DNA of 64,000 bases. Origin: Candidatus Dojkabacteria bacterium. GTDB taxonomy: Bacteria; Patescibacteriota; Dojkabacteria; SC72. Both the position numbers and the translations under genes were made by a program. The notes beneath the pieces were generated by a model that saw nothing but the letters and a program-made list of their open reading frames with translations, was not told where the DNA came from and did not search any database. Shown here one piece after another: positions 9,510-62,459 of the stretch; the stretch's first letter is position 1, and the number at the start of each line of letters is the position of its first letter. Location: the NCBI GenBank assembly GCA_050943415.1, contig JBMNPD010000003.1, forward strand, positions 3,962 through 67,961, given 5' to 3'.

Positions 9510-11033
9510 CTACTTAGCCACCTCGGTTGCTCTAGTTTCTCTAATAACAGTAACCTCTATATTACCTGGGTAGTTTAGTTTTTTCTCAATCTCCTGAGCA
9601 ACATCCTTAGCCATCACTACTGCTTCATCATCAGAAACAAGCTTTGGCTTAACTATTATTCTCACTTCTCTTCCTGCCTTTATTGCAAATACTTCATCAA
9701 TCCTATCTCCACCAATATCTTTTGCAGCACTCTCTATACCCTCAATTCTTTGAATATACTGTTCGTAGCTATCTTTTCTTGCACCAGGTCTAGAACCAGA
9801 TATTGCATCAGCAAGATAAACAACCACAGCTTCAGGACTTTGTGGCTCAACATCTAAATGATGTGCCTCTATTGCATTTACCAACTTCTCATCAAGCATA
9901 TATTTTCTAGCTATTTGACCAGAAATATGATGGTGAGGACTGTCTACTTTATGTGTTAATACTTTACCGACATCATGTAGAAGAGCTGCTCTCTTAACTA
10001 ATGTTGTATCCAAACCTAATTCCGTAGCCAGTACTTCAGCTATTCTAACAACCTCTATAGTGTGAGACATAAGTGATTGCCCATAACTAGTTCTATACTT
10101 CATCTTTCCAATCAATTTCATTAACCCAACATCCATATCTGGCCAATCTGCTTCATCTGCAAGTACTTGTCCATTTTTCTTAATCTCTTGAGCAATATCA
10201 TTCTTTGCTTTCCTAACTGCTTCCTCTATTGAACTTGGATGGATTCTTCCATCACCAATTAATTTATTCATAGCTACATACGCAATCTCTCTTCTTAACG
10301 GATCAAAAGAAGACAAAGCAATTGCATTTGGTGATTCATCTACAATTACATCTACACCTGTTAGCTGTTCAAAAGATCTAATATTTCTTCCCTCTTTTCC
10401 TATGATTCTACCTTTAACCTTGTCATCATCAACTTTGATAACTTTTGTTGTAGTCTCTCCAACATAGTCTGTCACAACTCGTTGCATTGATTCTACAAGT
10501 ATCTTCTGTGCTTTCTCCTCTGCAGTAGCTTCAATATTCTTCTCTGCCTGTCTTATCTTCTGAGCCTCATAGCCTTTCAAGTCCTCATCTATCTCACTCT
10601 TAAGCTTCTCAGTTGCTTCCTCTCTAGACAAACCAGAGATTCTTTCCAATTCTCCCTTTAATTGAGTTCTATCATTCTCTAGCTTTTCATTCATCTCTTT
10701 TAAACTCTTCTCTTTACTCTGCAATTCATTACTTTTATCATCAAGAATCTTAGACCTCTTGTTTAATGCTTTCTCTCTATCTATTAGAATAGATTCATGC
10801 TCAGCATTCTCTTTTCTAATCTCTTTTAGTCTTTTCTCTTCTCTTTCGCGAAGCTCAGATATTTCATCTTCTGCATCACTAAACTTCTTACTCATTATTT
10901 TTTTGGCAGCAGCCTCTATCTCTTCTCTAGGAATATTATTAATATTTACCCATTTAAATACATACCTTAGAAGAGCAATAGTGCCACCTATACTTATTAC
11001 CGCAGTAACAAGCGATGCTATTACTGTTTCCAT
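9510..11033 (-). CDS. rny: Ribonuclease Y
   Basis: N-terminal TM, long coiled coil, KH domain (GRIIGKEGRNIRSFEQLTGVDVIVD) and HD domain (HTIEV...LLHDVGK). Confidence 0.9.
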   Translation of the reverse strand: METVIASLVTAVISIGGTIALLRYVFKWVNINNIPREEIEAAAKKIMSKKFSDAEDEISELREREEKRLKEIRKENAEHESILIDREKALNKRSKILDDKSNELQSKEKSLKEMNEKLENDRTQLKGELERISGLSREEATEKLKSEIDEDLKGYEAQKIRQAEKNIEATAEEKAQKILVESMQRVVTDYVGETTTKVIKVDDDKVKGRIIGKEGRNIRSFEQLTGVDVIVDESPNAIALSSFDPLRREIAYVAMNKLIGDGRIHPSSIEEAVRKAKNDIAQEIKKNGQVLADEADWPDMDVGLMKLIGKMKYRTSYGQSLMSHTIEVVRIAEVLATELGLDTTLVKRAALLHDVGKVLTHKVDSPHHHISGQIARKYMLDEKLVNAIEAHHLDVEPQSPEAVVVYLADAISGSRPGARKDSYEQYIQRIEGIESAAKDIGGDRIDEVFAIKAGREVRIIVKPKLVSDDEAVVMAKDVAQEIEKKLNYPGNIEVTVIRETRATEVAK

Positions 11034-14547: not shown

Positions 14548-14857
14548 AAAATGTGCAAGCACACAGTAAGCCGAATTCTGTATAACGATGGTTATCTATC
14601 TAAGCGGTTTTAACCTTGCTTCGAGTGGGGGTTGCCACGCAATGTTGTATTACTACAACATCCGGTAGTCTCTTACACTACCATTTCACCCTTACCTACA
14701 AGTAGGCGGTATATCTTTCTGTTGCCCTTTTCTCCAAAAGATCACTCCCCTCCAACTCTCGTTGGCACTCCTCTTGATATGTTCAAGATCGACATGAAGT
14801 CCGGACTTTCCTCATCTACTAAGAGCAGATGCAACCATCTAATGTACTTGCACAGCT
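14548..14857 (-). ncRNA. rnpB: RNase P RNA, bacterial type A
   Basis: Minus-strand read carries P4 5' GAGGAAAGUCCGGACUUC and P4 3' ACAGAAUUCGGCUUA. It also has UAAGGGUGAAAUGGUAGUGUAAGAGACUACC (consensus GGGUGAAAxGGUGCGGUAAGAGCGCACC) and CCCCACUCGAAGCAAGGUUAAAAC (consensus CCCCACCxGGAGCAAGGCCAAAUAGG). The P1 pairing is GUGCAAG/CUUGCAC. A TATAAT-like box sits just 5' of the RNA at about 14859-14866. Ends are within about 10 nt. Confidence 0.9.
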
Positions 14858-20235: not shown

Positions 20236-22017
20236 CTACTTAACTGTAACTGATTTCGCTAGATTTCTCGGTCTATCAACATTATTCCCCAATTTAACAG
20301 AAAGGAAATACGAGATTAGTTGGAAAGGAATAGCATTACTAATACTAGAAATATTACCAACCTGTGGTGTCTCAATATATCTATCAAATAGATCCATCTT
20401 ACTAAATTCTTGACTACCGACACCTATTGTAAAAGCACCTCTTGTCTTTACTTGCTCCATAGCACTAATCAAACTAGCGCTATCTTCACTCTCTTTTGGT
20501 GGAATAATACCAAAAACAATCGTTCCTTTCTCCACTAATGCTATAACACCATGTTTTAACTCTCCTGCCGCAAAACCCTCCACATGTTTGTAAGAAACTT
20601 CTTTAATTTTAAGAGCTCCTTCAAACGCGATATATACATTCTCTCCTTTACCTAAAATAAAGGCACTATCTTTGTTTACCATACAGCTTGAAATATCCCT
20701 TATATTCGCAAAGCTCTCTTTAGTAAAAAGCCTTGTTATTTCTTTAGAAAGCTCCTTGATATTCTTCTTTGCTATCCTGTACTTTCCTACAACACTCATG
20801 GCTAAAAGATATCCCCATGCACACTGTGCCGTAAAAACTTTTGTAGACGCAACGCATATCTCAGGACCCGAGTTTGCATAAAACTCAAAATCAGACAGAC
20901 TACTAATGGTAGTACCGTGCATATTAACTATACTGGCAATCTTGCAACCTTTCTCTTTCATTCCTTCAATTGCTTCAATAGTATCTGCTGTCTCTCCACT
21001 TTGTGAGAATGCAATCACAACATCTCCTTTGTTAACAATAGGAAGATATGATCTGAACTCATAGCTTTTAATCTCCCTAGCATCTACATTTGCAATATTT
21101 CTTAAGAAATACGCAACTTGCCCAGCTGCAAACCCTGCAGTACCAGCACCAATAAGGAATACCTTGTTCCTTTTTTTAACCTCATTAACTAATTGTTCTA
21201 AATCTTTCTCTGTGTAGTTTGTAGCAAAAAGCAAAGTTTCTTTCTGGTCTACTATTTCTTTAAGCATGAAATGTTTAAATTTACCTTTTTCAATATTGTT
21301 ATATTGATGCTTCAACTCTTTTACTTCAATTTTTTTCTTCTTATTTTCAAGAACATCAAAAATTTTAATATCCTTTCCATCTATTTCTACCATATCATAA
21401 TTTTCTAGAAATACAGCTTTATTTGTAGCAAACGAAAAAGAAAGCGTGTCTGAGGAAAGATATACACCATCTTTTGCAATACCAATAACTAACGGAGATC
21501 CATTTCTTAAAGCATAAATCTTTCTATCGTCATGACTTAAAATAGCTACTGTATTCCTGCCTTTCAACCTTTTAAACACATCAACAATAGCCTCTTTAAG
21601 AGACATGTTTTCAAGCTCTTGCTCTATTAATCTAACTATTACCTCTGTATCTGTTTGCGAAACAAATTTAACACCTTTTTTAATTAAACCTTGTTTTAAT
21701 TCAGCAACATTCTCAACCATACCATTTTGAGCGAGTGTAAAATTTCCTAATAACGAAAGATGAGGATGGGCATTAATCTTTGTTACACTACCATGTGTAG
21801 CCCATCTAATATGTCCAATACCGATATTTCCTTTCGGTAACTTCCGAAAAGCACCACTCTCCTTAACTTCACCTAAATCTTTGCATTGGTAAATCTTATC
21901 TTTTCCTAATACAGCCACTCCCCACGAGTCATAACCAAGATATTCCAGCCTCTTGAGGCCATCAAAAATAATATTCTTACTCTCTTTAGTTCCAGAGTAT
22001 CCAAAAATAGCACACAT
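20236..22017 (-). CDS. glmS: Glutamine--fructose-6-phosphate aminotransferase
   Basis: MCAIFGYSG (N-terminal Cys nucleophile), two SIS domains, C-terminus ...DRPRNLAKSVTVK. Confidence 0.95.
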   Translation of the reverse strand: MCAIFGYSGTKESKNIIFDGLKRLEYLGYDSWGVAVLGKDKIYQCKDLGEVKESGAFRKLPKGNIGIGHIRWATHGSVTKINAHPHLSLLGNFTLAQNGMVENVAELKQGLIKKGVKFVSQTDTEVIVRLIEQELENMSLKEAIVDVFKRLKGRNTVAILSHDDRKIYALRNGSPLVIGIAKDGVYLSSDTLSFSFATNKAVFLENYDMVEIDGKDIKIFDVLENKKKKIEVKELKHQYNNIEKGKFKHFMLKEIVDQKETLLFATNYTEKDLEQLVNEVKKRNKVFLIGAGTAGFAAGQVAYFLRNIANVDAREIKSYEFRSYLPIVNKGDVVIAFSQSGETADTIEAIEGMKEKGCKIASIVNMHGTTISSLSDFEFYANSGPEICVASTKVFTAQCAWGYLLAMSVVGKYRIAKKNIKELSKEITRLFTKESFANIRDISSCMVNKDSAFILGKGENVYIAFEGALKIKEVSYKHVEGFAAGELKHGVIALVEKGTIVFGIIPPKESEDSASLISAMEQVKTRGAFTIGVGSQEFSKMDLFDRYIETPQVGNISSISNAIPFQLISYFLSVKLGNNVDRPRNLAKSVTVK

Positions 22018-22034
22018 ATCCTTTATACCATTAT

Positions 22035-22172
22035 TTTAGATTTGGGAACTGTTAATTACTTTTTGGAATTGTAGTAATCTTTAGGCAAACAGTATTACCT
22101 GAAGGTATCCGCTGATTGTCTCGATTTCCTTCTCCTCGTAGTAGCTTCCTTACGACTACCCATACGCTTTTA
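22035..22172 (-). ncRNA. Candidate glmS ribozyme (GlcN6P-sensing self-cleaving RNA) in the glmS 5' leader
   Basis: Minus-strand read AAAGCG UAUGG GUAG..CUAC U ACGAGGAGAAGGAAAUCGAGACAAUCAGCGGAUACCUUC. This matches the ribozyme core GACGAGGAUGGAGGUUAUCGAAUUUUCGGCGGAUGCCUCC, with P2 pseudoknot arms GAAGG/CCUUC where the consensus has GGAGG/CCUCC. A 5' A-GCG cleavage-site context is present. Downstream are P3-like (AGG..CCU) and P4-like (GAUUACU..AGUAAUU) hairpins. It ends about 20 nt before the glmS SD AAAGGA. Boundaries are approximate. Confidence 0.6.
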
Positions 22173-22251
22173 TTTTAAATACCCCATTTATATACTACAA
22201 GATATAGCAGCACAGAGCAAATTCGATATTTTAGAATCAGGTTCAACAGAC

Positions 22252-22902
22252 CTACAAATTTAAAACCTTAACAACATTCTTATGAATTTCATCAATTGAA
22301 GGTGATGCATCTACTTCTATCAAAATACCTCTCTTCCTATACTCTTCAAGTATTGGTTGTATCGTCCTATTGTATTCTTTCAATCTTTCTTTAATCTTTT
22401 CAGGCTGATCATCTTCTCTTTTTTCTAATTTAGCAGAGCATTTTGTACAATATCCTTTCTCCTTTTCAGGCTTGTATTTATCATGATATGTAGCAGCACA
22501 TTTAGGACAGTACCATCTAAGTGACATTCTCTCTATTGCAGCCTCTTCACTCAATGTAAAGTGAACGAACTTATCTAATTTTCTACCTTTCTTTTCCAGT
22601 AAATCATCAAAGAGAGGGATCTGTCCAACATCTCTTACTACGGATACAAATGCCCAATTCTTAGTCGGATCATACTTATCCAACCATTTGGGCAACATTC
22701 TATATATTATTTCATTTGGAACAAACTTTCCTTGACTAACATATTTATCAGCTTCTATAGCATCAGAATCATTCTCTAACAACATTTTACGTAACATCTC
22801 TCCTGTACCGATACTCTCAAAATTGTATTGTTCTACTAACAAGTCAACTTGTGTGTCCTTACCACAACCAGAAGGACCATGAAAAAGAAAAGTCGTCTGC
22901 AT
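22252..22902 (-). CDS. adk: Adenylate kinase with a zinc-lid
   Basis: P-loop GPSGCGKDTQ and LID Cys4 CPKC...CTKC. Confidence 0.9.
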   Translation of the reverse strand: MQTTFLFHGPSGCGKDTQVDLLVEQYNFESIGTGEMLRKMLLENDSDAIEADKYVSQGKFVPNEIIYRMLPKWLDKYDPTKNWAFVSVVRDVGQIPLFDDLLEKKGRKLDKFVHFTLSEEAAIERMSLRWYCPKCAATYHDKYKPEKEKGYCTKCSAKLEKREDDQPEKIKERLKEYNRTIQPILEEYRKRGILIEVDASPSIDEIHKNVVKVLNL

Positions 22903-22931
22903 TGATATAAATAATATGTAAATTAAAAAAC

Positions 22932-22944
22932 ACCCTTAAGGTAG
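22932..22944. repeat. REP-like palindrome CCTTAAGG upstream of RAYT-like gene A
   Basis: ACCCTTAAGGTAG, related to ACCTTAAAGGTAT at 23612. Confidence 0.35.
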
Positions 22945-23071
22945 TATGATAATGTTATCACATAGGGCTTAGATGTAGCAAGTTAACAAATTTTTAAGAA
23001 ATTATCGGCTAATTTAATAAAAGAAAATTTGATTTAACCTATTTTTAATAATTACCATATATCATTTAAGA

Positions 23072-23530
23072 ATGAGGACAAGTTTAGAAAAAGATATTAT
23101 TTATCATATATATAACAGAGGAAATAGAAAACAAACTATTTGTTTTACTAGAAAGGATTACGCAAAACTCCTTAATCTATTTTACAAATACTTTGATTAT
23201 CGCTCCTTTAATATTATTTCTCTTTGTATTATGCCCAACCATTTTCATTTGTTGGTTGTCAGAAACAGCAATCTAAACACCGAAAGAGCTATACAGAATG
23301 TCTCTTCTGTATATGCGAAATATATAAATAAAAAATACGGAGTAGTTGGGCATCTATTTCAAGGTACATATAAAAGAAAGAAAGTTACTGATATTGTCTA
23401 TTTTGAGAAGTTAGTTAAATATATTAACAATAATCCTATTGAATTAAGTCCTCACACACCTTTTATCCTCAAAGAAAATAGAAAACTGATTAACTACTAC
23501 AAAATGATTCTTTCTACAGAATCCGAATAA
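23072..23530 (+). CDS. Small HUH-type transposase-like protein (IS200/IS605 Y1 or REP-associated tyrosine transposase family), copy A
   Basis: Motifs YHIYNRGNRK and the HuH box CIMPNHFHLLVV. GHLFQGTYKRKKV carries the presumed catalytic Tyr, compared with the RAYT WQxRFY/IS200 FWARGY context. A paralog is at 40026-40550. Confidence 0.65.
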   Translation: MRTSLEKDIIYHIYNRGNRKQTICFTRKDYAKLLNLFYKYFDYRSFNIISLCIMPNHFHLLVVRNSNLNTERAIQNVSSVYAKYINKKYGVVGHLFQGTYKRKKVTDIVYFEKLVKYINNNPIELSPHTPFILKENRKLINYYKMILSTESE

Positions 23531-23611: not shown

Positions 23612-23627
23612 ACCTTAAAGGTATTTA
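23612..23627. repeat. REP-like palindrome ACCTTAAAGGTATTTA downstream of RAYT-like gene A, overlapping the secY stop codon
   Basis: Near-identical to 13533-13548 (16 nt, 1 mismatch). Confidence 0.4.
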
Positions 23628-24880
23628 TTATAGCTTCTGACCGTTATCATTGATTCAATTTCTCTTTTTATCTCAAGAACTACACCAACTACAATTAGGA
23701 GGCCAGTCCCAGAAAAGACTGATCTTGGTATCAAACCTGTCTGAACAACAACATCTGGCAAGATAGAAAGAATAGCAAGGAAGATAGCACCTATTGCTGC
23801 CAATCTAAAGCTAACTTTTCGTAAATAATCAGAGGTGTTATCACCTGGTCTTATACCTTGTATAAATGCACCTTGTTTTTGCAAATTCTCTGCTAATTCA
23901 TCTGTTTTGAATACTACGGTTAGATAGAAGAATGAAAAGGCTATGACCAATACAAATATTAAGGAGTTATATATATATGGATTGTTCAACCAATCTAATA
24001 TTTTCTGCATAAAATCAGTTAATCCTTGATTATAGTTTTTACTTACAAGAAATTTTCCTATTAGCTGAGGGAATGAAATAAATGCCATAGCAAAGATTAC
24101 TGGCATTACTCCTGACTGAGTAGGCTTTATTGGAATATAGCTTTCCATTGCACCACCTGTTCTTACTCTTCTAGAATACTGTACTTTTACTCTCCTTTCA
24201 GCTTGTGTGACAAAAACAACGGATACTATTAAGAATATTGAAAATACTGTAAATACAATTTTTTGGCCAACATCCATTGTCATAAAATTTGTCCTTATGG
24301 TACCAGGTATTCCTGAGAGGATTCCAAGCATGATTAGATATGATGATCCTCCACCTAAACCACTCTCGGATATTAACTCTCCAAACCACATCATTACTAC
24401 AGAGCCAGCTGTTAATGTTGCAGACATTGCTACGAGTTCTAATGCTCCTAGTTGTGGTATTAATCCCATTGCAAGTAATGAGGAGTATATTACAAATGAT
24501 TGTAAGATGGCTAAGGGAACTGTTGCAAGTCTTGTATACATTGATATTTTTCTTCTTCCCTCTAGTCCTTCTTTTTGTAACTCTTCTAGTTTAGGAATTA
24601 CTGTAGCTAATAATTGGAAGATGATTGAAGCGTTAATATATGGTGTCAAACCTATTGCAACAATTGATGCTGTTTCTAATACTCCTCCCGAAACAGTAGA
24701 GAGTACTTCTCCTACTCCTGTTCCTTCAAACAGCTGTCTTATGGCATCTGCAGGGATTCCTGAAACTGGTATAGCAGAAAGTACTCTGTATACAACCATG
24801 ATCATCAACGAGTAGAGTATTTTTTTTCTAATTTCCTCTGTTTTCCAAATGGACTTTAATTTTTCTATAAATTTGTTCAT
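23615..24880 (-). CDS. secY: Preprotein translocase subunit SecY
   Basis: Ten TM helices and N-terminus MNKFIEKLKSIWKTEEIRKKILYSLMIMVVYRV. Confidence 0.95.
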   Translation of the reverse strand: MNKFIEKLKSIWKTEEIRKKILYSLMIMVVYRVLSAIPVSGIPADAIRQLFEGTGVGEVLSTVSGGVLETASIVAIGLTPYINASIIFQLLATVIPKLEELQKEGLEGRRKISMYTRLATVPLAILQSFVIYSSLLAMGLIPQLGALELVAMSATLTAGSVVMMWFGELISESGLGGGSSYLIMLGILSGIPGTIRTNFMTMDVGQKIVFTVFSIFLIVSVVFVTQAERRVKVQYSRRVRTGGAMESYIPIKPTQSGVMPVIFAMAFISFPQLIGKFLVSKNYNQGLTDFMQKILDWLNNPYIYNSLIFVLVIAFSFFYLTVVFKTDELAENLQKQGAFIQGIRPGDNTSDYLRKVSFRLAAIGAIFLAILSILPDVVVQTGLIPRSVFSGTGLLIVVGVVLEIKREIESMITVRSYNKYL

Positions 24881-44950: not shown

Positions 44951-45967
44951 TTACTGTTCTTCTAACAAATATGGAACAGGAAGATCTCCTTCATCTTCAA
45001 TCTCACTTTTCTCTAAGAATTCTTCTGAAACAGCACAGATATAGTAATTGATAGTTGCCAGATATTCATTCCCTACAAAATCTTTTACCTTAACATCTGA
45101 ATTGATTATATATGCAGGGAATATATATCCGTGTGAGAAATTTTTGAATAAATATGTAGAGACAAGCTGTTTAGGATCATCTTGAACTATTTCTATAGAG
45201 GACTGCTGTATTGGATTTTTTTCATAATAGCTCTCATTTATACTCATATACTTGCCAAAAATCCTCTTTGTATTTATAAGATTTTTAGGATTCACAGGAA
45301 GATATGCAGAGTATTTAATAATTGACGATGTGTCATAAAGAAAGATATTAAACTGATATAGATTACCTGAGCTATCTACAAGAAGTTTGTACGCATCTGA
45401 ATCTATTTCAAGAGAACCAAACCGAAAATCTCCAATACTATATTTTCCTGAATATATATAATTACCATCAGAATCTTTGGAAACATTAATTTCATCAACC
45501 TGACAATTAAAATAATCTCTAAAGAAGTCTACAACAGCGTTTTGGTCTACAATTTTTATTCCTAAATCTGTTTTCTCACGAGAAGTTAGACTTAAAATAC
45601 CCATATCATAATTGTATCCAACTAAAACTGTACCAAAATTCCAACTAGCAGAGTATTCTGATTCAGCAATTTTAGTAAAATCTGGATTCAACTTTTCAAT
45701 TAAATCTTCAATTGATGCCTTACTTGCTTTGATTCTATATACAGGGACATATTCATTTTGAAAAAGTGACTGTTTAGATGGTATTGTTTTTATACTGTAT
45801 ATATTCTGAGCTACAAATGGTTCAACAAATACTTTATTATTAACTATAGAAGAAGCACGTTGCTCTTTTTTATGTTTGGCAACAAGAAGAAAAATTGTAA
45901 CAAGGACCAGTCCTAGAATTACTCCTGCTAGAATAAACCATTTGTATTTTTTAAAAAAGTTTTTCAT
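44951..45967 (-). CDS. Membrane-anchored (signal-anchor) extracytoplasmic protein, function unknown
   Basis: I prefer the start at the second Met (MKNFFKKYKWFILAGVILGLVLV) at 45967. The track start at 46042 would overlap the upstream gene. Confidence 0.5.
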   Translation of the reverse strand: MKNFFKKYKWFILAGVILGLVLVTIFLLVAKHKKEQRASSIVNNKVFVEPFVAQNIYSIKTIPSKQSLFQNEYVPVYRIKASKASIEDLIEKLNPDFTKIAESEYSASWNFGTVLVGYNYDMGILSLTSREKTDLGIKIVDQNAVVDFFRDYFNCQVDEINVSKDSDGNYIYSGKYSIGDFRFGSLEIDSDAYKLLVDSSGNLYQFNIFLYDTSSIIKYSAYLPVNPKNLINTKRIFGKYMSINESYYEKNPIQQSSIEIVQDDPKQLVSTYLFKNFSHGYIFPAYIINSDVKVKDFVGNEYLATINYYICAVSEEFLEKSEIEDEGDLPVPYLLEEQ

Positions 45968-45974
45968 ATTTAGA

Positions 45975-48500
45975 TTATCTACAAAAACGAATAGAAGACG
46001 CAACCATGCTACCACATGCACTTGATACGGCCCCTCCAACATTTCGAGCTAAATCAGCGAGTTCTCCTTCAGAGCAACCTCTAGAAAGGAAGTATGATTT
46101 TGTCGAAGTTGCAGTTACACACTGTCCATCTACCATGAATTTGTAATGTCCACCATTGCCTGAAAGTAAATCTGCTCCCCATTCACGTACTACAGACGGA
46201 GCTCCTCCCCCATTTCTTCCTTGTACTTGATGTAGAAGTTCATGAGTAAATAGTTTTGAAAGAGTGACATTAGATTGCTTAGCTAACTTATCACCTTTAC
46301 AATAAATTTTATCAGCACTGTAACACCACGCCCAGTCAATACTAGCACACATACGATGTCCAGGACATGTGACAAGTTCTAACTTAGTTCCAAGTCCCAT
46401 ACTTGCTGCTACTTGGTCATAAATTTCCTCTATTGATCCAGAAAAGATTGGAACATCAGCATCTAGATCTTCAAAAAAGAAGTCTCCTCTTCCACTATCA
46501 AATATACTAAACCCCTCACAAGTAACTACTTCTACAGGAGAGATATGGGAATTTACAGATAAAAATGCAGAACTTCCAAAAATAAACTTGAAGAAAAGTA
46601 CCATTACAAGTAATACCCCAACAGAAACAAAAGCTAATGTCTTGGTTACTGCTTTCATTGTTGGCTCTGCTAACTTTGTAGCAACTCTCGTAGCAGTACC
46701 TGTTGCAATATTTCCAACTATATTCCCCAATGGCCCACCAACAACACTCCCTATGACACGATTTATTGCCTTTCCTAATAGCTGCATACCACCTTTTTCT
46801 ACCCATTCTTTTAAAATCTCTCCGGCAAATTTCTTGAATGCATCACTTTGAATTAGAAGATTAGCAATCTGTTCTCTAGATTTCCTTCCTATCTTTGAAT
46901 CAAAATACATTGACACTTTGTTTTGCCATCGTTGGATAGTATTAAATCGATATGCTAAATTACTTAATCTCTCATTCTTTTTTATAAATTCAATTAAAGC
47001 TTGGGCCTGTTCTTGAGAGAGTATTGATAAGACACTCTCCATATATGCGTCATTTATCTTTCCTTTGTCGTTATATAGTCTAGTCATATCAAATCCTTGA
47101 ATACTATTCCCAAACTTATTTTGAAATTTATTCATATTTTCGTAGACTTGGTAGGCATATAGCTCTCCATTCATTAAAGATTTAACACGTACAAGAGGGA
47201 TCCTATAATAGAATTTAAGCAACCGTTCATTAAATCTTTGAGCATATTGTGATCTCGATGTTTTTGCTATTTTGAAATTAATATCTGCTCCGTTAATATT
47301 AATCTTGTTAAACCCACGCACTCCACCTTCACTTAATGTTCTGCTTGCTCCATAATCTACGGGATTGAACCAATGTTTATTTGAACGATTAAAGAAGTTT
47401 CCTGTTATGAAAAGATCACCTGCTTGAATTTGACCAGTACCCTTAAGAGAAGACCAGAAACCATCCATCCTACCGGCAAAAGCTGCAGCTCTCATACTTC
47501 CTGACATACTTCTATTTGCATACATTAATTTTATTTCCTTTTCTAACGCTTTTATTTTCTCTTTTTTATTTGGATCATTACTGTTTTTTAATCTGTTAAC
47601 CTCGTCTTTATATCTTCTAATCTCCATACTATTTTTCCGTTCACTTGTTTTTCTTTGTTCATTCGTTAATGAAGAATCTATATATCGCCGCGAAAGATAA
47701 TAATTTTGTGCCTTTAACATATCACCAGCACTTTCTGCTTCTACTGCCTTGTCACGTATTTCTTGACCCTCAACAAAGACATATACATTTTTGTCATATA
47801 ATAAAGACTTTTTTTCTTTTGTATCTTTTGCTTTCTCTATCCAATTCTTATATTCACCGAATTTTTTTTTAGCTTCTTCTTCTGAACCGTATCTCTCTAT
47901 GAAGTCTGCCAAGGTATATGATTTATTTGGATCTATTAAATGCTTATCTATTAATTGCTCTATCCTTTCTTCTGTACTTATCGCTTTAGCAGAATCAAAG
48001 TTTTCTATTTGCTTCAATCTATCAAATGCTCCATGTAGGTTTGACATAGCTAGAACTGTTTCCTTATCCAATCCATGTTTTTTAGCCCACATACTACCTA
48101 GCAACGCCTGTATTTCATCACCAGCCCAGAAAGCTTTGTTAACTTTTCTGTTCGCTTCATATTTTGTAAATGTTTTATCTAAGAAGCCTGTAGGATCTTT
48201 TAATGCTTTTGGTATATCTTTGGCATTGAGCTTCACTTTATTCCGTTTTCCTTCTCCGTATTTAACACTAAGTAAATCGTAGTTAACAACATCTTCAAAT
48301 GCGTCCATTGTTGATTTGTTTACAAACAGGAGAGGATTTTCAAGTGTAGCAACAAGAGCATCTGCAAATTCAGAGGTACCATCTATGCCTGTGACCTTTA
48401 CTGGTTTAACCTTTGCAGGATGTTTTTTTGTTTCTGCAAAAATAAAATCATATATGGAACCCAAAGCATCTTTATACTGTTTAGGTTTCTCTTTAGCCAT
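45975..48500 (-). CDS. Large bitopic protein (841 aa): about 620-aa cytoplasmic region, one TM, about 190-aa Cys-rich extracytoplasmic domain with an HExxH motif
   Basis: No signal peptide. TM at LAFVSVGVLLVMVLFFKFIFG. C-terminal domain has LFTHELLHQVQGRNGGGAPSVVREWGADL, i.e. HExxH plus a downstream Glu, which is gluzincin-like, and 10 or more Cys. No Walker motifs. Confidence 0.5.
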   Translation of the reverse strand: MAKEKPKQYKDALGSIYDFIFAETKKHPAKVKPVKVTGIDGTSEFADALVATLENPLLFVNKSTMDAFEDVVNYDLLSVKYGEGKRNKVKLNAKDIPKALKDPTGFLDKTFTKYEANRKVNKAFWAGDEIQALLGSMWAKKHGLDKETVLAMSNLHGAFDRLKQIENFDSAKAISTEERIEQLIDKHLIDPNKSYTLADFIERYGSEEEAKKKFGEYKNWIEKAKDTKEKKSLLYDKNVYVFVEGQEIRDKAVEAESAGDMLKAQNYYLSRRYIDSSLTNEQRKTSERKNSMEIRRYKDEVNRLKNSNDPNKKEKIKALEKEIKLMYANRSMSGSMRAAAFAGRMDGFWSSLKGTGQIQAGDLFITGNFFNRSNKHWFNPVDYGASRTLSEGGVRGFNKININGADINFKIAKTSRSQYAQRFNERLLKFYYRIPLVRVKSLMNGELYAYQVYENMNKFQNKFGNSIQGFDMTRLYNDKGKINDAYMESVLSILSQEQAQALIEFIKKNERLSNLAYRFNTIQRWQNKVSMYFDSKIGRKSREQIANLLIQSDAFKKFAGEILKEWVEKGGMQLLGKAINRVIGSVVGGPLGNIVGNIATGTATRVATKLAEPTMKAVTKTLAFVSVGVLLVMVLFFKFIFGSSAFLSVNSHISPVEVVTCEGFSIFDSGRGDFFFEDLDADVPIFSGSIEEIYDQVAASMGLGTKLELVTCPGHRMCASIDWAWCYSADKIYCKGDKLAKQSNVTLSKLFTHELLHQVQGRNGGGAPSVVREWGADLLSGNGGHYKFMVDGQCVTATSTKSYFLSRGCSEGELADLARNVGGAVSSACGSMVASSIRFCR

Positions 48501-48512
48501 ACTTTAATCAAA

Positions 48513-49871
48513 CTATTTAAACATACTACCAATTAATGGTATTCCTGACAGACTTGTTTTGACGGCAGTTGCTGTGTCTCCTACTTGTTTTGACACTGTA
48601 GGAGGAACTATGACAGCTGCCATAGCAGGAGCATTTGCAGCAGCGTATATTGCAACTATTTTAACAACTGCAAGCATAAATCCACCAACCTTTCCATCTA
48701 CAGCTTCTTCACCCGCTAATGATGTTGGAAATGCCAATGTTATTCCTTTTGACTCTGCATAATAAGGTAGGTTAACAATTGCATATGCTATCGGGAAAAC
48801 TAATACATTTCTTAAAGCGGACTTAAATATATTTATAGTTGATGCTTCATTGCCTGGTAATGCACCAGCAAATATAGCCAATGGAGCAAATATTACACTC
48901 ATTATTATTCCTAAATATGCTTTTAAAAGAGTAATCCAAAGCTTTACCATACCCCAGAAGACAATTCCTATGGGAATTAAAGTTAACAAAAGACCAATGA
49001 TACCAACTGTGGTAGCAGTCCCACTTTTAAACACACCCGCGATTGTAAGTATAACAGTGACTAAAGAATTAGTACCAGAAAACAATTTAAAAGTAAAACC
49101 TGTCTTACTAAAGAAATTACCAAACATGGTAATTGGATTCGTTATCTTCACTCCTTCACCCATTTCAGGACCTCCATATAGCAAAATCTGAACAAGCTTC
49201 ATAATGAGGGCTCCAATGTCTATAATCAAACCTATGATTGCAAAACTAAATGTTACAAGTACCAAAGCTACAACTACTTTAGGGATAGAATTACCTACAG
49301 TAACCATTATCTGACCTCCTATCTTATGTCTAAACATAATCATAAAACCAATAGCTATCATTATTACTACAAATCCTGTATACGCTATATTTCTAGTAGT
49401 CATCCACAGGACATCCACTTTCGAATTTCGTAAATCTGTATATCCTGCAGCGTATGTACTATTAGAATCCGCATATCCAGGTACCCACTGTTGTGCCAAA
49501 TGAGCAGGAACATCTACAGTTGGGACACTATTAAACAAGGAATATACTGCTTTCTCACTTGTTTCTAACAGACCCATTTTTGCAGAATCTGGAATAGTAG
49601 GATCATTCATAACTCTCTCCCCTCCTCTTGTACACGAAGGACAAGTTTCCATTAACATAGTTTCTAAACCACCATAGATTTGTTTAGCTATGAATTGTGA
49701 AATATTTTCACCCTTAACATCCGCGAATTTTTCTACTTTGTCTATTAGTTCAACCCAACCTGCAGTAGTATCTAGTACCTCTACTTCCTGAGCATAGGCT
49801 GTTTCTGAAATTGTACTAAATAGAAGAAACGAAAACAGAAAAGTTATAATCAATTTCTTTAGTTTAATCAT
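48513..49871 (-). CDS. Polytopic membrane protein with a cleavable signal peptide and about 130-aa extracytoplasmic N-domain; VirB6/TrbL-like topology
   Basis: Signal LIITFLFSFLLFSTISETAYA, a CPSC-containing soluble domain, then about 7 TM helices. The family assignment rests on topology only. Confidence 0.4.
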   Translation of the reverse strand: MIKLKKLIITFLFSFLLFSTISETAYAQEVEVLDTTAGWVELIDKVEKFADVKGENISQFIAKQIYGGLETMLMETCPSCTRGGERVMNDPTIPDSAKMGLLETSEKAVYSLFNSVPTVDVPAHLAQQWVPGYADSNSTYAAGYTDLRNSKVDVLWMTTRNIAYTGFVVIMIAIGFMIMFRHKIGGQIMVTVGNSIPKVVVALVLVTFSFAIIGLIIDIGALIMKLVQILLYGGPEMGEGVKITNPITMFGNFFSKTGFTFKLFSGTNSLVTVILTIAGVFKSGTATTVGIIGLLLTLIPIGIVFWGMVKLWITLLKAYLGIIMSVIFAPLAIFAGALPGNEASTINIFKSALRNVLVFPIAYAIVNLPYYAESKGITLAFPTSLAGEEAVDGKVGGFMLAVVKIVAIYAAANAPAMAAVIVPPTVSKQVGDTATAVKTSLSGIPLIGSMFK

Positions 49872-49895
49872 TTACTCTTAATAATAATTTATATT

Positions 49896-51350
49896 TTACA
49901 ATTTATAATATTTAGAAGACCTTTTAATAGCTTCCTGTGTTACTCTCCAATACTTATCAAAATTAGATGGGAAATCCTGCCCGGGAGCACTATCTGTTTT
50001 GCTTTGAAAGAACCTTAACATTGTAGGTGAATCATCCCATAAGCACCACACACCAATTTCTAAACGTGTTTCTACTACTATTGCTTTACAGGGTGTAGCA
50101 ACAAAGTGCATCAAGGAATCTTCTGAATTACTAGATATTACTTTTTTCTTAGATGCTTGCTGAGGAGAAAGAGTTGCCTTATGTAGATATGTCATAGCTG
50201 CTGTAGCACAACCTTCAGCTTCACACTCATATGGATCTCCAAATATTGAAGACATTTCAATCATTATATTTACTGGTCCAGTACAATCTCCTGTAGGACC
50301 AACATCTTCACAATCTTCATCTCCTTCTTCGCATTTTATACCGTGACAAGCATTCCATTCTGCTCTACTAAATGAATCCTCAAATACTCCTTTAATTCTA
50401 GCAACAATTTTCCAACACGCAGTTTCTAGGCCGTAATTCATTTCTGTTCTTAGATTCCCAACATCTAAGCAGCCATCTTCTGGTTCTATATCATACTTAT
50501 CTCCTCCTGGTATTTGTTGACGCCAATATAGTCCATCTTCATTATCAGAAGCCACATAGTTACTTTTGCCACCATTAAAATCCGATACGGCTACTTCTGG
50601 AGCACAAAATGTTTTCGGATCATGATCAGCATTTTTGATAATATACTCTCCTGATTCTAAAAGTTCAGTTATCTTTGGGTAAGCAATGAGTGATCCCTTA
50701 ACCATGAATTGCTGTCTTACTGTACCATCTATATTCTTTCGAAAAGTTTCTGCTTCTTTTGGTGCAAGAGCTCTACTTTGAGCAGCTTCGTCCAACACTT
50801 CTCCACTAGAATTGTAAGAAGGATCCCTAGAAGTAATTGTTTTTGTACTATTTTCAAAACCATCTTGACCTAACCAATATCCTAATGGATAAGTTACTTC
50901 TACTAATTGTATCTCTGCATCTTTATCGACAATGACATCTCCACCTACTACCGTACCATCTTTGTAGTCAATAGTACCAGTACCATCTGAACATAAAAGA
51001 GTATCTGATTCTAGTCGATTTGCCACGCTATAACCTCTTTTGCATGACCAAGCTGTTCCCCTGCCCACTATACTACTGGACCCTAAAACAACTTCTGTAA
51101 TATCTACTGTTTCCGAAGCAGGTAGTATCGTAACCTTCATACCATTTTCTTCTGGAAGTATCTTTTCTTCTACTACCTTAGATTTTACTCCACCACAACT
51201 TGTACATTCTTCTGTAGATATTACTTTTATCTCAGTAGCCTTTGTTCCTATATTGATTCTGTTTGTAATTTTTACAACAAAGAAAGAAAACGTTACTAAC
51301 ATTATTAAGAAATAGAGACCTTTTTTGTTTTTTCTTCTTGGTTGCATCAT
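49896..51350 (-). CDS. Secreted Cys-rich protein (484 aa), unknown function
   Basis: N-terminal anchor/signal LYFLIMLVTFSFFVV, more than 20 Cys, an acidic Cys cluster EEGDEDCEDVGPTGDCTGP...YECEAEGC. Confidence 0.5.
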   Translation of the reverse strand: MMQPRRKNKKGLYFLIMLVTFSFFVVKITNRINIGTKATEIKVISTEECTSCGGVKSKVVEEKILPEENGMKVTILPASETVDITEVVLGSSSIVGRGTAWSCKRGYSVANRLESDTLLCSDGTGTIDYKDGTVVGGDVIVDKDAEIQLVEVTYPLGYWLGQDGFENSTKTITSRDPSYNSSGEVLDEAAQSRALAPKEAETFRKNIDGTVRQQFMVKGSLIAYPKITELLESGEYIIKNADHDPKTFCAPEVAVSDFNGGKSNYVASDNEDGLYWRQQIPGGDKYDIEPEDGCLDVGNLRTEMNYGLETACWKIVARIKGVFEDSFSRAEWNACHGIKCEEGDEDCEDVGPTGDCTGPVNIMIEMSSIFGDPYECEAEGCATAAMTYLHKATLSPQQASKKKVISSNSEDSLMHFVATPCKAIVVETRLEIGVWCLWDDSPTMLRFFQSKTDSAPGQDFPSNFDKYWRVTQEAIKRSSKYYKL

Positions 51351-60365: not shown

Positions 60366-62459
60366 CTATTTCTTCTCCAATCCTTTCATACTCAACTTGA
60401 TTTTGCCCTGATTATCTATTCCAACTATCTTTACCTTAATAATATCTCCCTCATTGATAAACTTTCTAACATCTTTAACAAATTCATCAGATATTTCTGA
60501 CACATGAAGAAGACCAGAAATGCCTGGTGCTAAATCTACAAATCCACCGTAAGGCATAATTGATGCTACCTTACCTTCATAGATTTCTCCTATCTGTGGT
60601 ACAAAGTTATATCCTCCAATAATCCTTGATGCTTCATCTATAGATTCCTTAGAAGAACTATAGATATTAACTGTACCATCTTCATCAATTTCAATTTCTG
60701 CTCCTGTTCTTTCCGAAAGTTCACGAATATTCTTTCCTCCAGGGCCAATTATCTCACCAATCTTGTCTGTAGGAACCTTAATCTGTACAACTCTAGGTGC
60801 ATACTGAGACATCTCTTCTCTTGGCTTTGAAATAGCTTCAGCCATTTTTGCAAGAATCTTCAATCTTGCATCCTTTGACTGTTTGAATGTCTGCTTTACA
60901 ACCTCCATACTCAAACCCTTTGTCTTAGTATCCATCTGTACTGCAGTTACTCCCTTATCTGTTCCTGTAATCTTAAAATCCATATCACCATAGAAATCTT
61001 CAACATCTCTCATATCTGTCAAAACTTTAAAACTTCCATCTTCTCCTGTTATCAATCCACAAGCAACACCAGCAACAGCATTCTTTAGTGGAACTCCTGC
61101 TGTCATCAAAGACATAGTAGATCCACAAGCAGAAGCCATTGAGCTTGATCCATTCTCACCTTGTATTTCACTCATAACTAACATCGTGTATGGGAATTCT
61201 TCCTCAGATGGAATTACTGGCCACAAAGCTTTCTCTGCTAACATTCCATGACCAATAGCTCTTCTACTTGGAGCTAGTTTAACTCTCTCTGCTTCTCCAT
61301 ATGCAAATGGTAAATCGTTGTAAAAATGCATATATCTCTGCTCTCTCTCGCCCTCCATATCATCTACCAATCTAACATCTTTCAAACTACCCAAGGTTGT
61401 TACTGTTAATGTCTGAGTAACACCTCTGGTAAACAACGCAGAACCGTGTACTCTAGGTAGAAGATCTACTTCAGTAGCCATTTCTCTAATCTCATCTGTT
61501 TTCCTGCCATCTGCTCTTACATCATCTTCTAATATGAGTTTTCTAAGAGCTTTTTTCTGTAAAGTATCGTATGCTTCATCCATAGCTAATTTAGAGTACT
61601 TACCCTCTAGTTTTTCATACAATTCATTTTTGCTTGCTTCGTGTACAGTCCTGTCACCTACACCATTTTTTAGATTCTCTGCAATTTTCTTCTCACCAAG
61701 AATTTCTAAGACAGCATCTACTACCTCATCTTCAAGAGCATATGATGTATATGTTTTTTCCTTAGGTTTAACCAATTTCAAAAATTCATTCTGTGCTTTA
61801 ATCCATTCATCCATCAGAGTTAATGATTTCTCCATACCCTCGAAAATCTTCTCTTCTTCTACTTCGTATGCACCTGCATCAATCATTGTAAATGTTTTAC
61901 CATCACCTGCTACAACATAGTTCATTCTCTCCTCCTCAGATGTTAAATCCATTGATTTCATGACATTCAAAATATTTTCATTAGCATCAAGGCCCATTCT
62001 TACAGCTCCAAGAGGTCCTTCAAACGGTGCTTTCGAATTCATCAAAGCCAAGGATACTGCATTTATTGCTAAAAGTGCTGGATCATTCTCATTGTCATAT
62101 GACATAACAGTAACAATCACACTCACTTCATCTTTGTAATCATGTGGAAATCTAGGTCTAACAGCTCTATCTATCATTCTTGCTTTAAGAATTGCATCAT
62201 CACTTGGAAATCTTTCTCTTTTAACAAATCTGGATCCACTTATCTTTCCTGATGCATAGAATTTTTCAATGTATTCAACAGAAAGAGGAAAGTAATCTGT
62301 TTCTCCAGTTGCTTCCTTTGTATTTACATTTACAGTAATTACTGTATCTCCCATTCTTGCTAGGATAGATGATTGAGATTTTAGAGCCAACTTTCCAGTT
62401 TCAAAGGAGCATTTTGTTCCTTCTATCTCAAACTCGTATTTTTTCTCGTTAAATAACAT
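60366..62459 (-). CDS. pnp: Polyribonucleotide nucleotidyltransferase (PNPase)
   Basis: Two RNase PH domains, then KH (IGPGGKNIRELSERTGAEIEI) and S1 (GEIYEGKVASIMPYGGFVDL) domains. Confidence 0.95.
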   Translation of the reverse strand: MLFNEKKYEFEIEGTKCSFETGKLALKSQSSILARMGDTVITVNVNTKEATGETDYFPLSVEYIEKFYASGKISGSRFVKRERFPSDDAILKARMIDRAVRPRFPHDYKDEVSVIVTVMSYDNENDPALLAINAVSLALMNSKAPFEGPLGAVRMGLDANENILNVMKSMDLTSEEERMNYVVAGDGKTFTMIDAGAYEVEEEKIFEGMEKSLTLMDEWIKAQNEFLKLVKPKEKTYTSYALEDEVVDAVLEILGEKKIAENLKNGVGDRTVHEASKNELYEKLEGKYSKLAMDEAYDTLQKKALRKLILEDDVRADGRKTDEIREMATEVDLLPRVHGSALFTRGVTQTLTVTTLGSLKDVRLVDDMEGEREQRYMHFYNDLPFAYGEAERVKLAPSRRAIGHGMLAEKALWPVIPSEEEFPYTMLVMSEIQGENGSSSMASACGSTMSLMTAGVPLKNAVAGVACGLITGEDGSFKVLTDMRDVEDFYGDMDFKITGTDKGVTAVQMDTKTKGLSMEVVKQTFKQSKDARLKILAKMAEAISKPREEMSQYAPRVVQIKVPTDKIGEIIGPGGKNIRELSERTGAEIEIDEDGTVNIYSSSKESIDEASRIIGGYNFVPQIGEIYEGKVASIMPYGGFVDLAPGISGLLHVSEISDEFVKDVRKFINEGDIIKVKIVGIDNQGKIKLSMKGLEKK

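Follow-up and report, generated by a model that had tools for sequence, protein, structure and literature searches.

The glmS ribozyme is a textbook family of self-cleaving RNAs, placed by reviews in 'many Gram-positive bacteria', in which glucosamine-6-phosphate (GlcN6P), the product of GlmS, occupies a preformed pocket and serves as the cleavage cofactor (PMC5473149). In Bacillus, the cleaved message is then decayed by the 5'-to-3' exonuclease RNase J1 (PMC10810187). In the Bacillus subtilis ribozyme, helix P2.1 is made of C38-G55 and G39-C54, A37 forms a triple, A56 pairs with U61 and G67 contacts A-1, the nucleotide 5' of the cleavage point (PMC11602151); in the core of the Thermoanaerobacter tengcongensis ribozyme, P2.2 extends from C2-G56 to C5-G53 with A6 bulged out, and P2.1 pairs residues 28-30 with residues 43-45 (PMC7125110). 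Here we analyse a 64,000-nucleotide (nt) stretch of Candidatus Dojkabacteria DNA (contig JBMNPD010000003.1 of assembly GCA_050943415.1), referred to below as the window and numbered from its first letter, which carries in the 5' untranslated region (UTR) of its glmS gene what is very probably a genuine, compact and clade-conserved glmS ribozyme-riboswitch. The curated Rfam model RF00234 already detects this RNA; what is new is the lineage and the trimmed architecture, not the kind of element.

When the whole 64-kb window was scanned against 4227 Rfam families, RF00234 (glmS ribozyme) matched the minus strand at 22045-22179 with 42.6 bits (gathering threshold 37) and an E-value of 1.4e-6 over that search space. 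The match is full-length, with model positions 1-167 all covered, lies on the same strand as the glmS open reading frame (ORF) and stops about 30 nt before the start of that ORF; RNase P RNA and one tRNA were the sole further Rfam matches within the window. A first-pass annotation, made from the letters, had placed a candidate glmS ribozyme at 22035-22172 and had proposed an RF00234 search. Its extent proves essentially right, and with a score above gathering its proposal stands. The 39-nt string that it quoted from the leader, ACGAGGAGAAGGAAAUCGAGACAAUCAGCGGAUACCUUC, is located at 22139-22101 on the minus strand. From 22185 to 22040 this strand reads GGGGUAUUUAAAAUAAAA up to the predicted cleavage point and GCGUAUGGGUAGUCGUAAGGAAGCUACUACGAGGAGAAGGAAAUCGAGACAAUCAGCGGAUACCUUCAGGUAAUACUGUUUGCCUAAAGAUUACUACAAUUCCAAAAAGUAAUUAACAGUUCCCAAAU beyond it, and we take the functional RNA to run, on the minus strand, from about 22185 (where the transcript is predicted to begin) or 22168 (A-1) to 22048 (the end of P3.1) or 22044. 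The gene under its control would be glmS (20236-22017, minus strand), encoding a 593-residue glutamine--fructose-6-phosphate aminotransferase with the GlmS domain set, namely a class-II GATase domain (Pfam GATase_6/7) followed by two SIS stretches. The protein begins with Met-Cys, which fits an N-terminal-nucleophile amidotransferase, and its homologues (52-96% identity) carry the names GlmS or Dojkabacteria. The distance from A-1 to the glmS start codon is 151 nt here and 149-160 nt in relatives that share the compact form.

That the genome belongs to the Candidate Phyla Radiation (CPR), as the first-pass annotation had suspected, was confirmed through SecY, a marker independent of glmS. An NCBI protein from Candidatus Dojkabacteria matches the SecY of the window (23615-24880) with 100% identity, and among the best 120 hits of this SecY (74-100% identity) all named ones are labelled Candidatus Dojkabacteria. 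In our scan of genomes and metagenomes, the nearest genome with this GlmS (69% identity) was likewise a Dojkabacteria metagenome-assembled genome (MAG).

To place the RNA among its relatives we gathered glmS loci without regard to whether they carried the RNA, from scans of genome and metagenome contigs confirmed by tblastn, which yielded few, and from exact-protein look-ups of GlmS homologues of 52-96% identity, which yielded most. With 42.5-67.6 bits, RF00234 exceeded its gathering threshold in the window and also in 18/18 Dojkabacteria-type glmS loci whose leader could be read; locus L028, with only 21 nt upstream of the gene, and loci L002 and L025, in which the gene is truncated at its 5' end, were excluded from this count. 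The RNA lies upstream of glmS in 19/19 cases across at least five different gene neighbourhoods, the neighbours being adk and infA in the window and in locus L072, and Zn_peptidase_2, DNA_alkylation, DUF4256, KTI12 and LemA elsewhere. Because these neighbourhoods differ, the RNA travels with glmS and not with its surroundings. No glmS ribozyme was found, at E-values up to 0.5, at 11 glmS loci of other lineages (36-44% identity), several of which are labelled CPR or DPANN (Saccharibacteria, Jacksonbacteria, Pacearchaeota), and none reached gathering at five further non-clade glmS loci scanned at that threshold only. Within CPR, the element is confined to the Dojkabacteria GlmS clade in the sample examined. 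The element is conserved clade-wide in front of Dojkabacteria glmS and is not specific to this genome, in which the first-pass annotation had called such an RNA notable.

The RNA is shown by covariation to fold into the canonical double-pseudoknot core with P3, P3.1 and P4. The sample comprised 14 distinct compact clade RNAs (13 sequences in an earlier version), and the controls were the same helices with partners slid by 1-3 columns, together with 500 shuffles. In the pseudoknotted fold 93.6% of cells were paired, compared with 24-49% in the slid controls, and 22 pairs were changed on both sides as against 3-8; none of the 500 shuffles reached the observed percentage paired or the covariation score. 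The signal is spread over the helices. P2 is paired in 100% of cells (14/14 RNAs), with four of its five pairs changed on both sides between G-C and A-U; the corresponding values are 97.4% and 4/6 for P1, 96.4% and 3/6 for P3, 87.8% and 5/7 for P4, and 94.3% and 3/5 for P3.1, where for example C-G becomes U-A and G-C becomes A-U. P2.1 is paired in 100% of cells with no pair changed, the helix and the base-triple A that precedes it being invariant in 14/14 RNAs; this invariance speaks neither for nor against pairing, and the letters are canonical. From the alignment alone, RNAalifold recovers P1, P2 and P3. Minimum free energy folding of the single sequence gave a z-score of -0.75, a stability that is not unusual, although this value is uninformative because the method ignores pseudoknots and the fold is both pseudoknotted and AU-rich.

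We mapped the helices onto the window with the residue numbering of PMC11602151 (B. subtilis) and PMC7125110 (T. tengcongensis core); all positions that follow are on the minus strand. The predicted scissile linkage lies between A-1 at 22168 and G1 at 22167, where the alignment with RF00234 places the AGCG cleavage site, and all four of these letters are invariant among the clade RNAs. Directly downstream is the 5' strand of P2.2 (22161-22166), which reads C2 G3 U4 U6 G7 with A5 bulged between U4 and U6 and pairs with C A G C G at 22114-22110; the C2-G and G3-C pairs are invariant and have canonical letters. The P1 hairpin (22140-22160) joins GGUAGU at 22160-22155 to GCUACU at 22145-22140 through six pairs, including G-U; it falls far short of the consensus length and lacks the extension that would carry a tetraloop receptor. 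It is followed by a core strand, ACGAGGA (22133-22139), which is invariant among the clade RNAs and holds the equivalents of B. subtilis A37, C38, G39, A40 and G41 (for their roles see PMC11602151 and PMC7125110). Within this strand C-G-A at 22138-22136 forms P2.1 with U-C-G at 22124-22122, in canonical letters. P2 (outer bounds 22101-22132) pairs GAAGG at 22132-22128 with CCUUC at 22105-22101 and encloses an A-U pair (22121/22115), the 3' strand of P2.2 and G22109, the equivalent of the B. subtilis G67 that contacts A-1.

On the 3' side of the core, the P3 hairpin (22083-22100) pairs 22100-22095 with 22088-22083, and its loop ACUGU (22093-22089) doubles as the 5' strand of P3.1, whose 3' strand ACAGU lies at 22048-22052. 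Between them stands the P4 stem (22054-22079; 22079-22073 with 22060-22054), closed by an A-rich loop of 12 nt, ACAAUUCCAAAA, at 22072-22061. Here both strands of IL4, an internal loop of the canonical ribozyme whose role we take from PMC11602151, are directly joined into one hairpin loop because P4.1 and L4 are missing; the ACAA...AAAA counterpart of IL4 is retained in the window, and most relatives have ACAAA...ACAAAG. The parts that the first-pass annotation had picked out by eye all find their place in this map: the A-GCG cleavage context at 22168 and 22167-22165, the P1 hairpin GUAG/CUAC at 22159-22156 and 22144-22141, the P2 arms GAAGG/CCUUC, and downstream P3- and P4-like hairpins at 22100-22083 and 22079-22054. 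Taken together, equivalents of the active-site and cofactor-pocket residues are present at 22168, 22167, 22166, 22139-22135, 22123, 22122 and 22109 and are invariant across the clade; in B. subtilis numbering the invariant set is A-1, G1, C2, A37-C38-G39-A40-G41, U53-C54-G55 and G67.

Set against this conserved core are departures from the canonical ribozyme. One concerns P2.2. The canonical register (C4-G54 and C5-G53 with A6 bulged, in T. tengcongensis numbering) fails in the clade, where it yields A·A, G·G or C·A, and canonical G53 is replaced by A and canonical A6 by U clade-wide. We considered erosion of the helix and rejected it, as shifting the bulge by one position restores five pairs in 13/13 RNAs; the bulge is at position 5 in nine RNAs (UAU type) and at position 4 in four (GCU type), and the RNA of locus L086 (ACU) was judged by eye to be of the position-4 type. 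The near residue-for-residue match to the canonical core claimed in the first-pass annotation therefore holds overall but not at C4, C5, A6 and G53, all of which are replaced, and P2.2 is retained despite these replacements because its bulge is shifted. Mutations at A6 are known to rescue mutations at C4, C5 and G53 through bulge shifts, with activity kept in vitro (PMC7125110), and the P2.2 predicted for the clade is the natural counterpart of this rearrangement, which until now had been known from mutational scans only. Other departures are peripheral. The P4.1 hairpin and the L4 tetraloop have no counterpart, 6 nt standing in place of the 24 of the model; P4.1 is absent in 14/14 compact RNAs and present in that of locus L085. 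With P1 of only six pairs and L4 absent, the L4-P1 receptor clamp is impossible. The modest bit score also follows from the absence of P4.1 and L4 and from the short P1.

Several observations weigh against the presence of a genuine and active glmS ribozyme at this locus. The consensus has eight helices, of which P4.1 is missing here; we treat it as accessory and not catalytic, and its absence as variation and not as failed membership of the family. Contact between L4 and P1 matters for the yield of the B. subtilis ribozyme (PMC11602151), and unless something makes up for its loss, the RNA described here could be less active at physiological Mg2+. Letters of the core differ from the canonical ones (G36 to U, C4/C5 to U/A and, in T. 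tengcongensis numbering, G53 to A), and the equivalent of B. subtilis A68 varies between A and G within the clade. The window scores just 5.6 bits above gathering, the clade minimum being 42.5 bits. The window's copy of the promoter is degenerate and falls below the threshold of our promoter scanner, and RNase J was not found among the 29 large window ORFs scanned with Pfam. Lastly, we infer cleavage and its dependence on GlcN6P from membership of the family and from the invariant active site.

One rival reading is a glmS-type self-cleaver with an altered cofactor need, one that is independent of GlcN6P or responds to another amino sugar and that would provide constitutive processing or sense another metabolite. 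A passage of PMC11602151 cites work in which a few active-site mutations abolish the GlcN6P requirement, and the core of the clade does differ in its U at G36, its rearranged P2.2 and the A or G at the A68 equivalent. However, the residues that make up the pocket and active site (U-C-G of P2.1, the A-C-G triple, G1, C2 and the G67 equivalent) are invariant, and an RNA that always accompanies glmS, in 19/19 cases and at least five neighbourhoods, bears the signature of GlcN6P feedback. We regard a changed cofactor as improbable.

Another reading sees a catalytically dead relic that survives only as a structured 5' UTR, one that might stabilise the mRNA or bind a protein. Regulatory elements are often eroded where CPR genomes have shrunk, and the loss of P4.1 and L4, the short P1 and a score that is lowest but one in the clade would suit such decay. 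A relic would not be expected, though, to hold AGCG and every active-site nucleotide invariant, nor would it fit that the two core pseudoknots and P3.1 have been kept by compensatory changes while GlmS diverged to 52% identity, and we think this explanation very improbable. Chance resemblance in an AT-rich intergenic region, to which the single-sequence z-score and the modest bit score might be thought to point, can be counted as already refuted by an E-value of 1.4e-6 over the window and all families, by a match lying exactly in front of glmS and by recurrence in 18 independent relatives with strong covariation. A functional, compact glmS ribozyme-riboswitch is the reading that we carry forward.

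In the proposed mechanism, transcription would start near 22185 from the cassette's own promoter, weakened in the window, with read-through from adk possibly adding to it. The RNA folds, as the covariation shows, with the P2.2, P2 and P2.1 core resting on P1 and buttressed by P3, P3.1 and P4. Accumulating GlcN6P would bind the preformed pocket and act as cofactor for a cut between A22168 and G22167, which would free the glmS mRNA of its triphosphorylated leader (about 17 nt) and give it a 5'-hydroxyl (5'-OH) end; the 3' cleavage product would begin 5'-OH-GCGUAUGGG. By analogy with Bacillus, this mRNA would then be degraded, lowering GlmS synthesis in a negative feedback loop. Of decay enzymes, the window encodes RNase Y (9510-11033, minus strand; RNase_Y_N, KH and HD domains) and PNPase (60366-62459, minus strand), which are mRNA decay enzymes of Gram-positive style in a CPR genome.

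Upstream alignment of the relatives revealed a common promoter, TTGACC, a 16-17 nt spacer and TG-TAATAT, and the promoter scanner independently reported TTGACC-17-TAATAT in locus L076 (997-1025) and TTGACC-16-TAATAT in locus L082 (995-1022). By alignment only, the predicted sigma-70-type promoter of the window is assigned to 22192-22220 on the minus strand, as a degraded copy with -35 TTGCTC (22220-22215), a 17-nt spacer ending in TG (22199-22198) and -10 TAGTAT (22197-22192). Transcription is predicted to start at about 22185, at an invariant GG 7 nt downstream of the -10 element, giving a 5' leader of about 17-18 nt (22168-22185, minus strand; GGGGUAUUUAAAAUAAAA) that ends at A-1 and would be removed by cleavage. 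A UAUUUAAnAU block within this leader (22171-22181), upstream of the cleavage site, is kept clade-wide and resembles a -10 element inside the transcript. We considered the corresponding TATTTAAnAT as the -10 element itself, which would put the start at or after the cleavage site; a longer alignment led us to reject this, because the conserved promoter (TTGACC-17-TG-TAATAT) lies further upstream and the block is inside the transcript. Known glmS ribozymes require next to no sequence on the 5' side of A-1. At the other end of the UTR, a Shine-Dalgarno-like AAAGGA precedes the glmS start of the window, where most relatives instead have CUACACAAAUAUG, without a Shine-Dalgarno sequence.

The conserved leader borders on a candidate closing helix, P0, of the form GGG(R)/(Y)CCC, which was proposed by RNAalifold. 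Its 5' strand would be GGGG at 22185-22182 and its 3' strand UCCC at 22044-22047 (minus strand), directly after P3.1. Across the alignment 52/56 cells of its four pairs are paired (92.9%), and both end pairs switch type. In the controls, 8/500 and 17/500 shuffles reached the observed values, a slide of -1 still gave 89% and a flank-swap permutation gave 301/5000, so that P0 is suggestive, a lead that is unproven. We offer, as a doubtful but possible model, a minimised ribozyme in which P0 replaces the lost P4.1/L4-P1 clamp, the leader lies alongside the fold and P0 guards the triphosphate end until GlcN6P triggers cleavage. If this were true, P0 would couple folding, 5'-end protection and mRNA decay, a coupling not described for Firmicute ribozymes; the UAUUUAAnAU leader would run along the fold, and 17 nt of leader would be released on cleavage.

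The ribozyme-glmS cassette of the window sits between adk and infA, inside a secY-adk-infA-rpmJ-rpsM-rpsK-rpsD-rpoA cluster that is conserved apart from this insertion (20236-23530; also L072 and L073), and the 96%-identical relative L072 has the same cassette arrangement. An ORF for an IS200-like Y1 transposase (23072-23530, plus strand) lies between secY and adk. In more distant relatives the cassette is found elsewhere, next to Zn_peptidase_2, DNA_alkylation and others, and has therefore moved as a unit. Its own promoter decayed after entry into the ribosomal cluster (TTGACC to TTGCTC, TAATAT to TAGTAT), and the Shine-Dalgarno-like AAAGGA arose over the same interval. Since the cassette lies downstream of adk in the cluster, read-through from adk may contribute to its transcription; no terminator-like site was found. 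On the other side, the 208-nt gap between glmS and infA holds a strong promoter-like site at 20092-20064 (minus strand; TTGAAT, 17 nt, TG-TATAAT, with 10/12 matches and an extended -10), which suggests that infA-rpmJ-rpsM and later genes are transcribed independently of glmS. With infA having a promoter-like site of its own, these downstream ribosomal genes are probably insulated from decay of the glmS message.

Other glmS loci in the collection showed features of their own. A tRNA gene lies directly 3' of glmS in L026 (2712-2785), L027 (2740-2813), L074 (3024-3097) and L002 (2753-2826); no tRNA gene is found directly 3' of glmS in the window, where infA stands instead. In L020, from a MAG labelled Saccharibacteria, a long, perfect-looking hairpin (1028-1143) precedes glmS and drew many weak matches to microRNA precursors (27-32 bits, all far under gathering); it probably represents no more than a strong inverted repeat.

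Elsewhere in the window, the class A RNase P RNA (14552-14850, minus strand; 158 bits) is reduced, in keeping with the reduced genome: it measures 299 nt for a model of 367 positions and has no counterpart at all to two segments of the model, 42 and 24 positions long. Four large co-directional ORFs, all on the minus strand, at 45975-48500, 48513-49871, 49896-51350 and 44951-46042 (841, 452, 484 and 363 residues, respectively) had no Pfam match at E<=1e-5. They adjoin ORFs of 623 and 1240 residues with purple-acid-phosphatase N-terminal and fn3 domains, and the ORFs around 44951-51350 may encode lineage-specific surface proteins.

With this RNA the ribozyme-riboswitch class reaches into the Candidate Phyla Radiation. 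This would mean that at least one reduced-genome CPR lineage keeps RNA-level metabolite feedback on amino-sugar synthesis, and it would imply a Bacillus-like route of mRNA decay dependent on 5'-OH ends. For RNA biochemists, the clade provides an evolution-tested version of 121 nt with a shifted P2.2 bulge and no L4-P1 clamp. Full-text searches returned no paper that links the glmS ribozyme to CPR, to Patescibacteria or to RNase J in CPR, though prior cataloguing in the Rfam full alignment or by McCown et al. 2011/2012 is possible.

How far the RNA has been trimmed is best seen beside its described counterparts. Like the RF00234 ribozymes of B. subtilis, B. cereus, B. anthracis and T. tengcongensis, it lies in the glmS 5' UTR, has AGCG at the cleavage site with the cut after A, and is built from a P2.2-P2-P2.1 core on P1, with P3 and P3.1 leading to the 3' tail and P4 with IL4. 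Unlike them, it lacks P4.1 and the L4 GNRA tetraloop, has a P1 of six pairs, a shifted P2.2 bulge and U at G36, is predicted to carry a 5' leader of about 17 nt, and resides in a CPR host and not in a Gram-positive one. From A-1 to the end of P3.1 it measures 121 nt, compared with 142 nt in the B. cereus ribozyme.

Closer to home, the RNA of L085 (contig NPID01000250.1), at the base of the clade and with a GlmS 55% identical, has AUCAGCGG and the other core letters in common with the window RNA, as well as a P2.2 bulge that is likewise shifted. In contrast to the window RNA, it has a P1 of 9-11 pairs and a P4.1 hairpin (CUGGA/UCCAG) with a GAAA-containing cap, and it scores 67.6 bits. L085 is the most divergent scanned member of the clade to keep the long P1 and P4.1, and to judge from this one fuller-length example the compact form seems to have arisen inside the clade by secondary reduction. 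Outside it, the RNA of the Anaerolineae locus L022 also precedes glmS and has the canonical architecture with long insertions (52.8 bits). Structural variants of glmS ribozymes were reportedly described from Deinococcus-Thermus by McCown, Roth and Breaker in 2011; in these the substructures supporting the core are said to be altered and stems added within the core, the catalytic core itself being kept, which sets a precedent for rare variants tied to one lineage. If so, the Deinococcus-Thermus variants add stems to the core, whereas the Dojkabacteria clade instead deletes peripheral elements.

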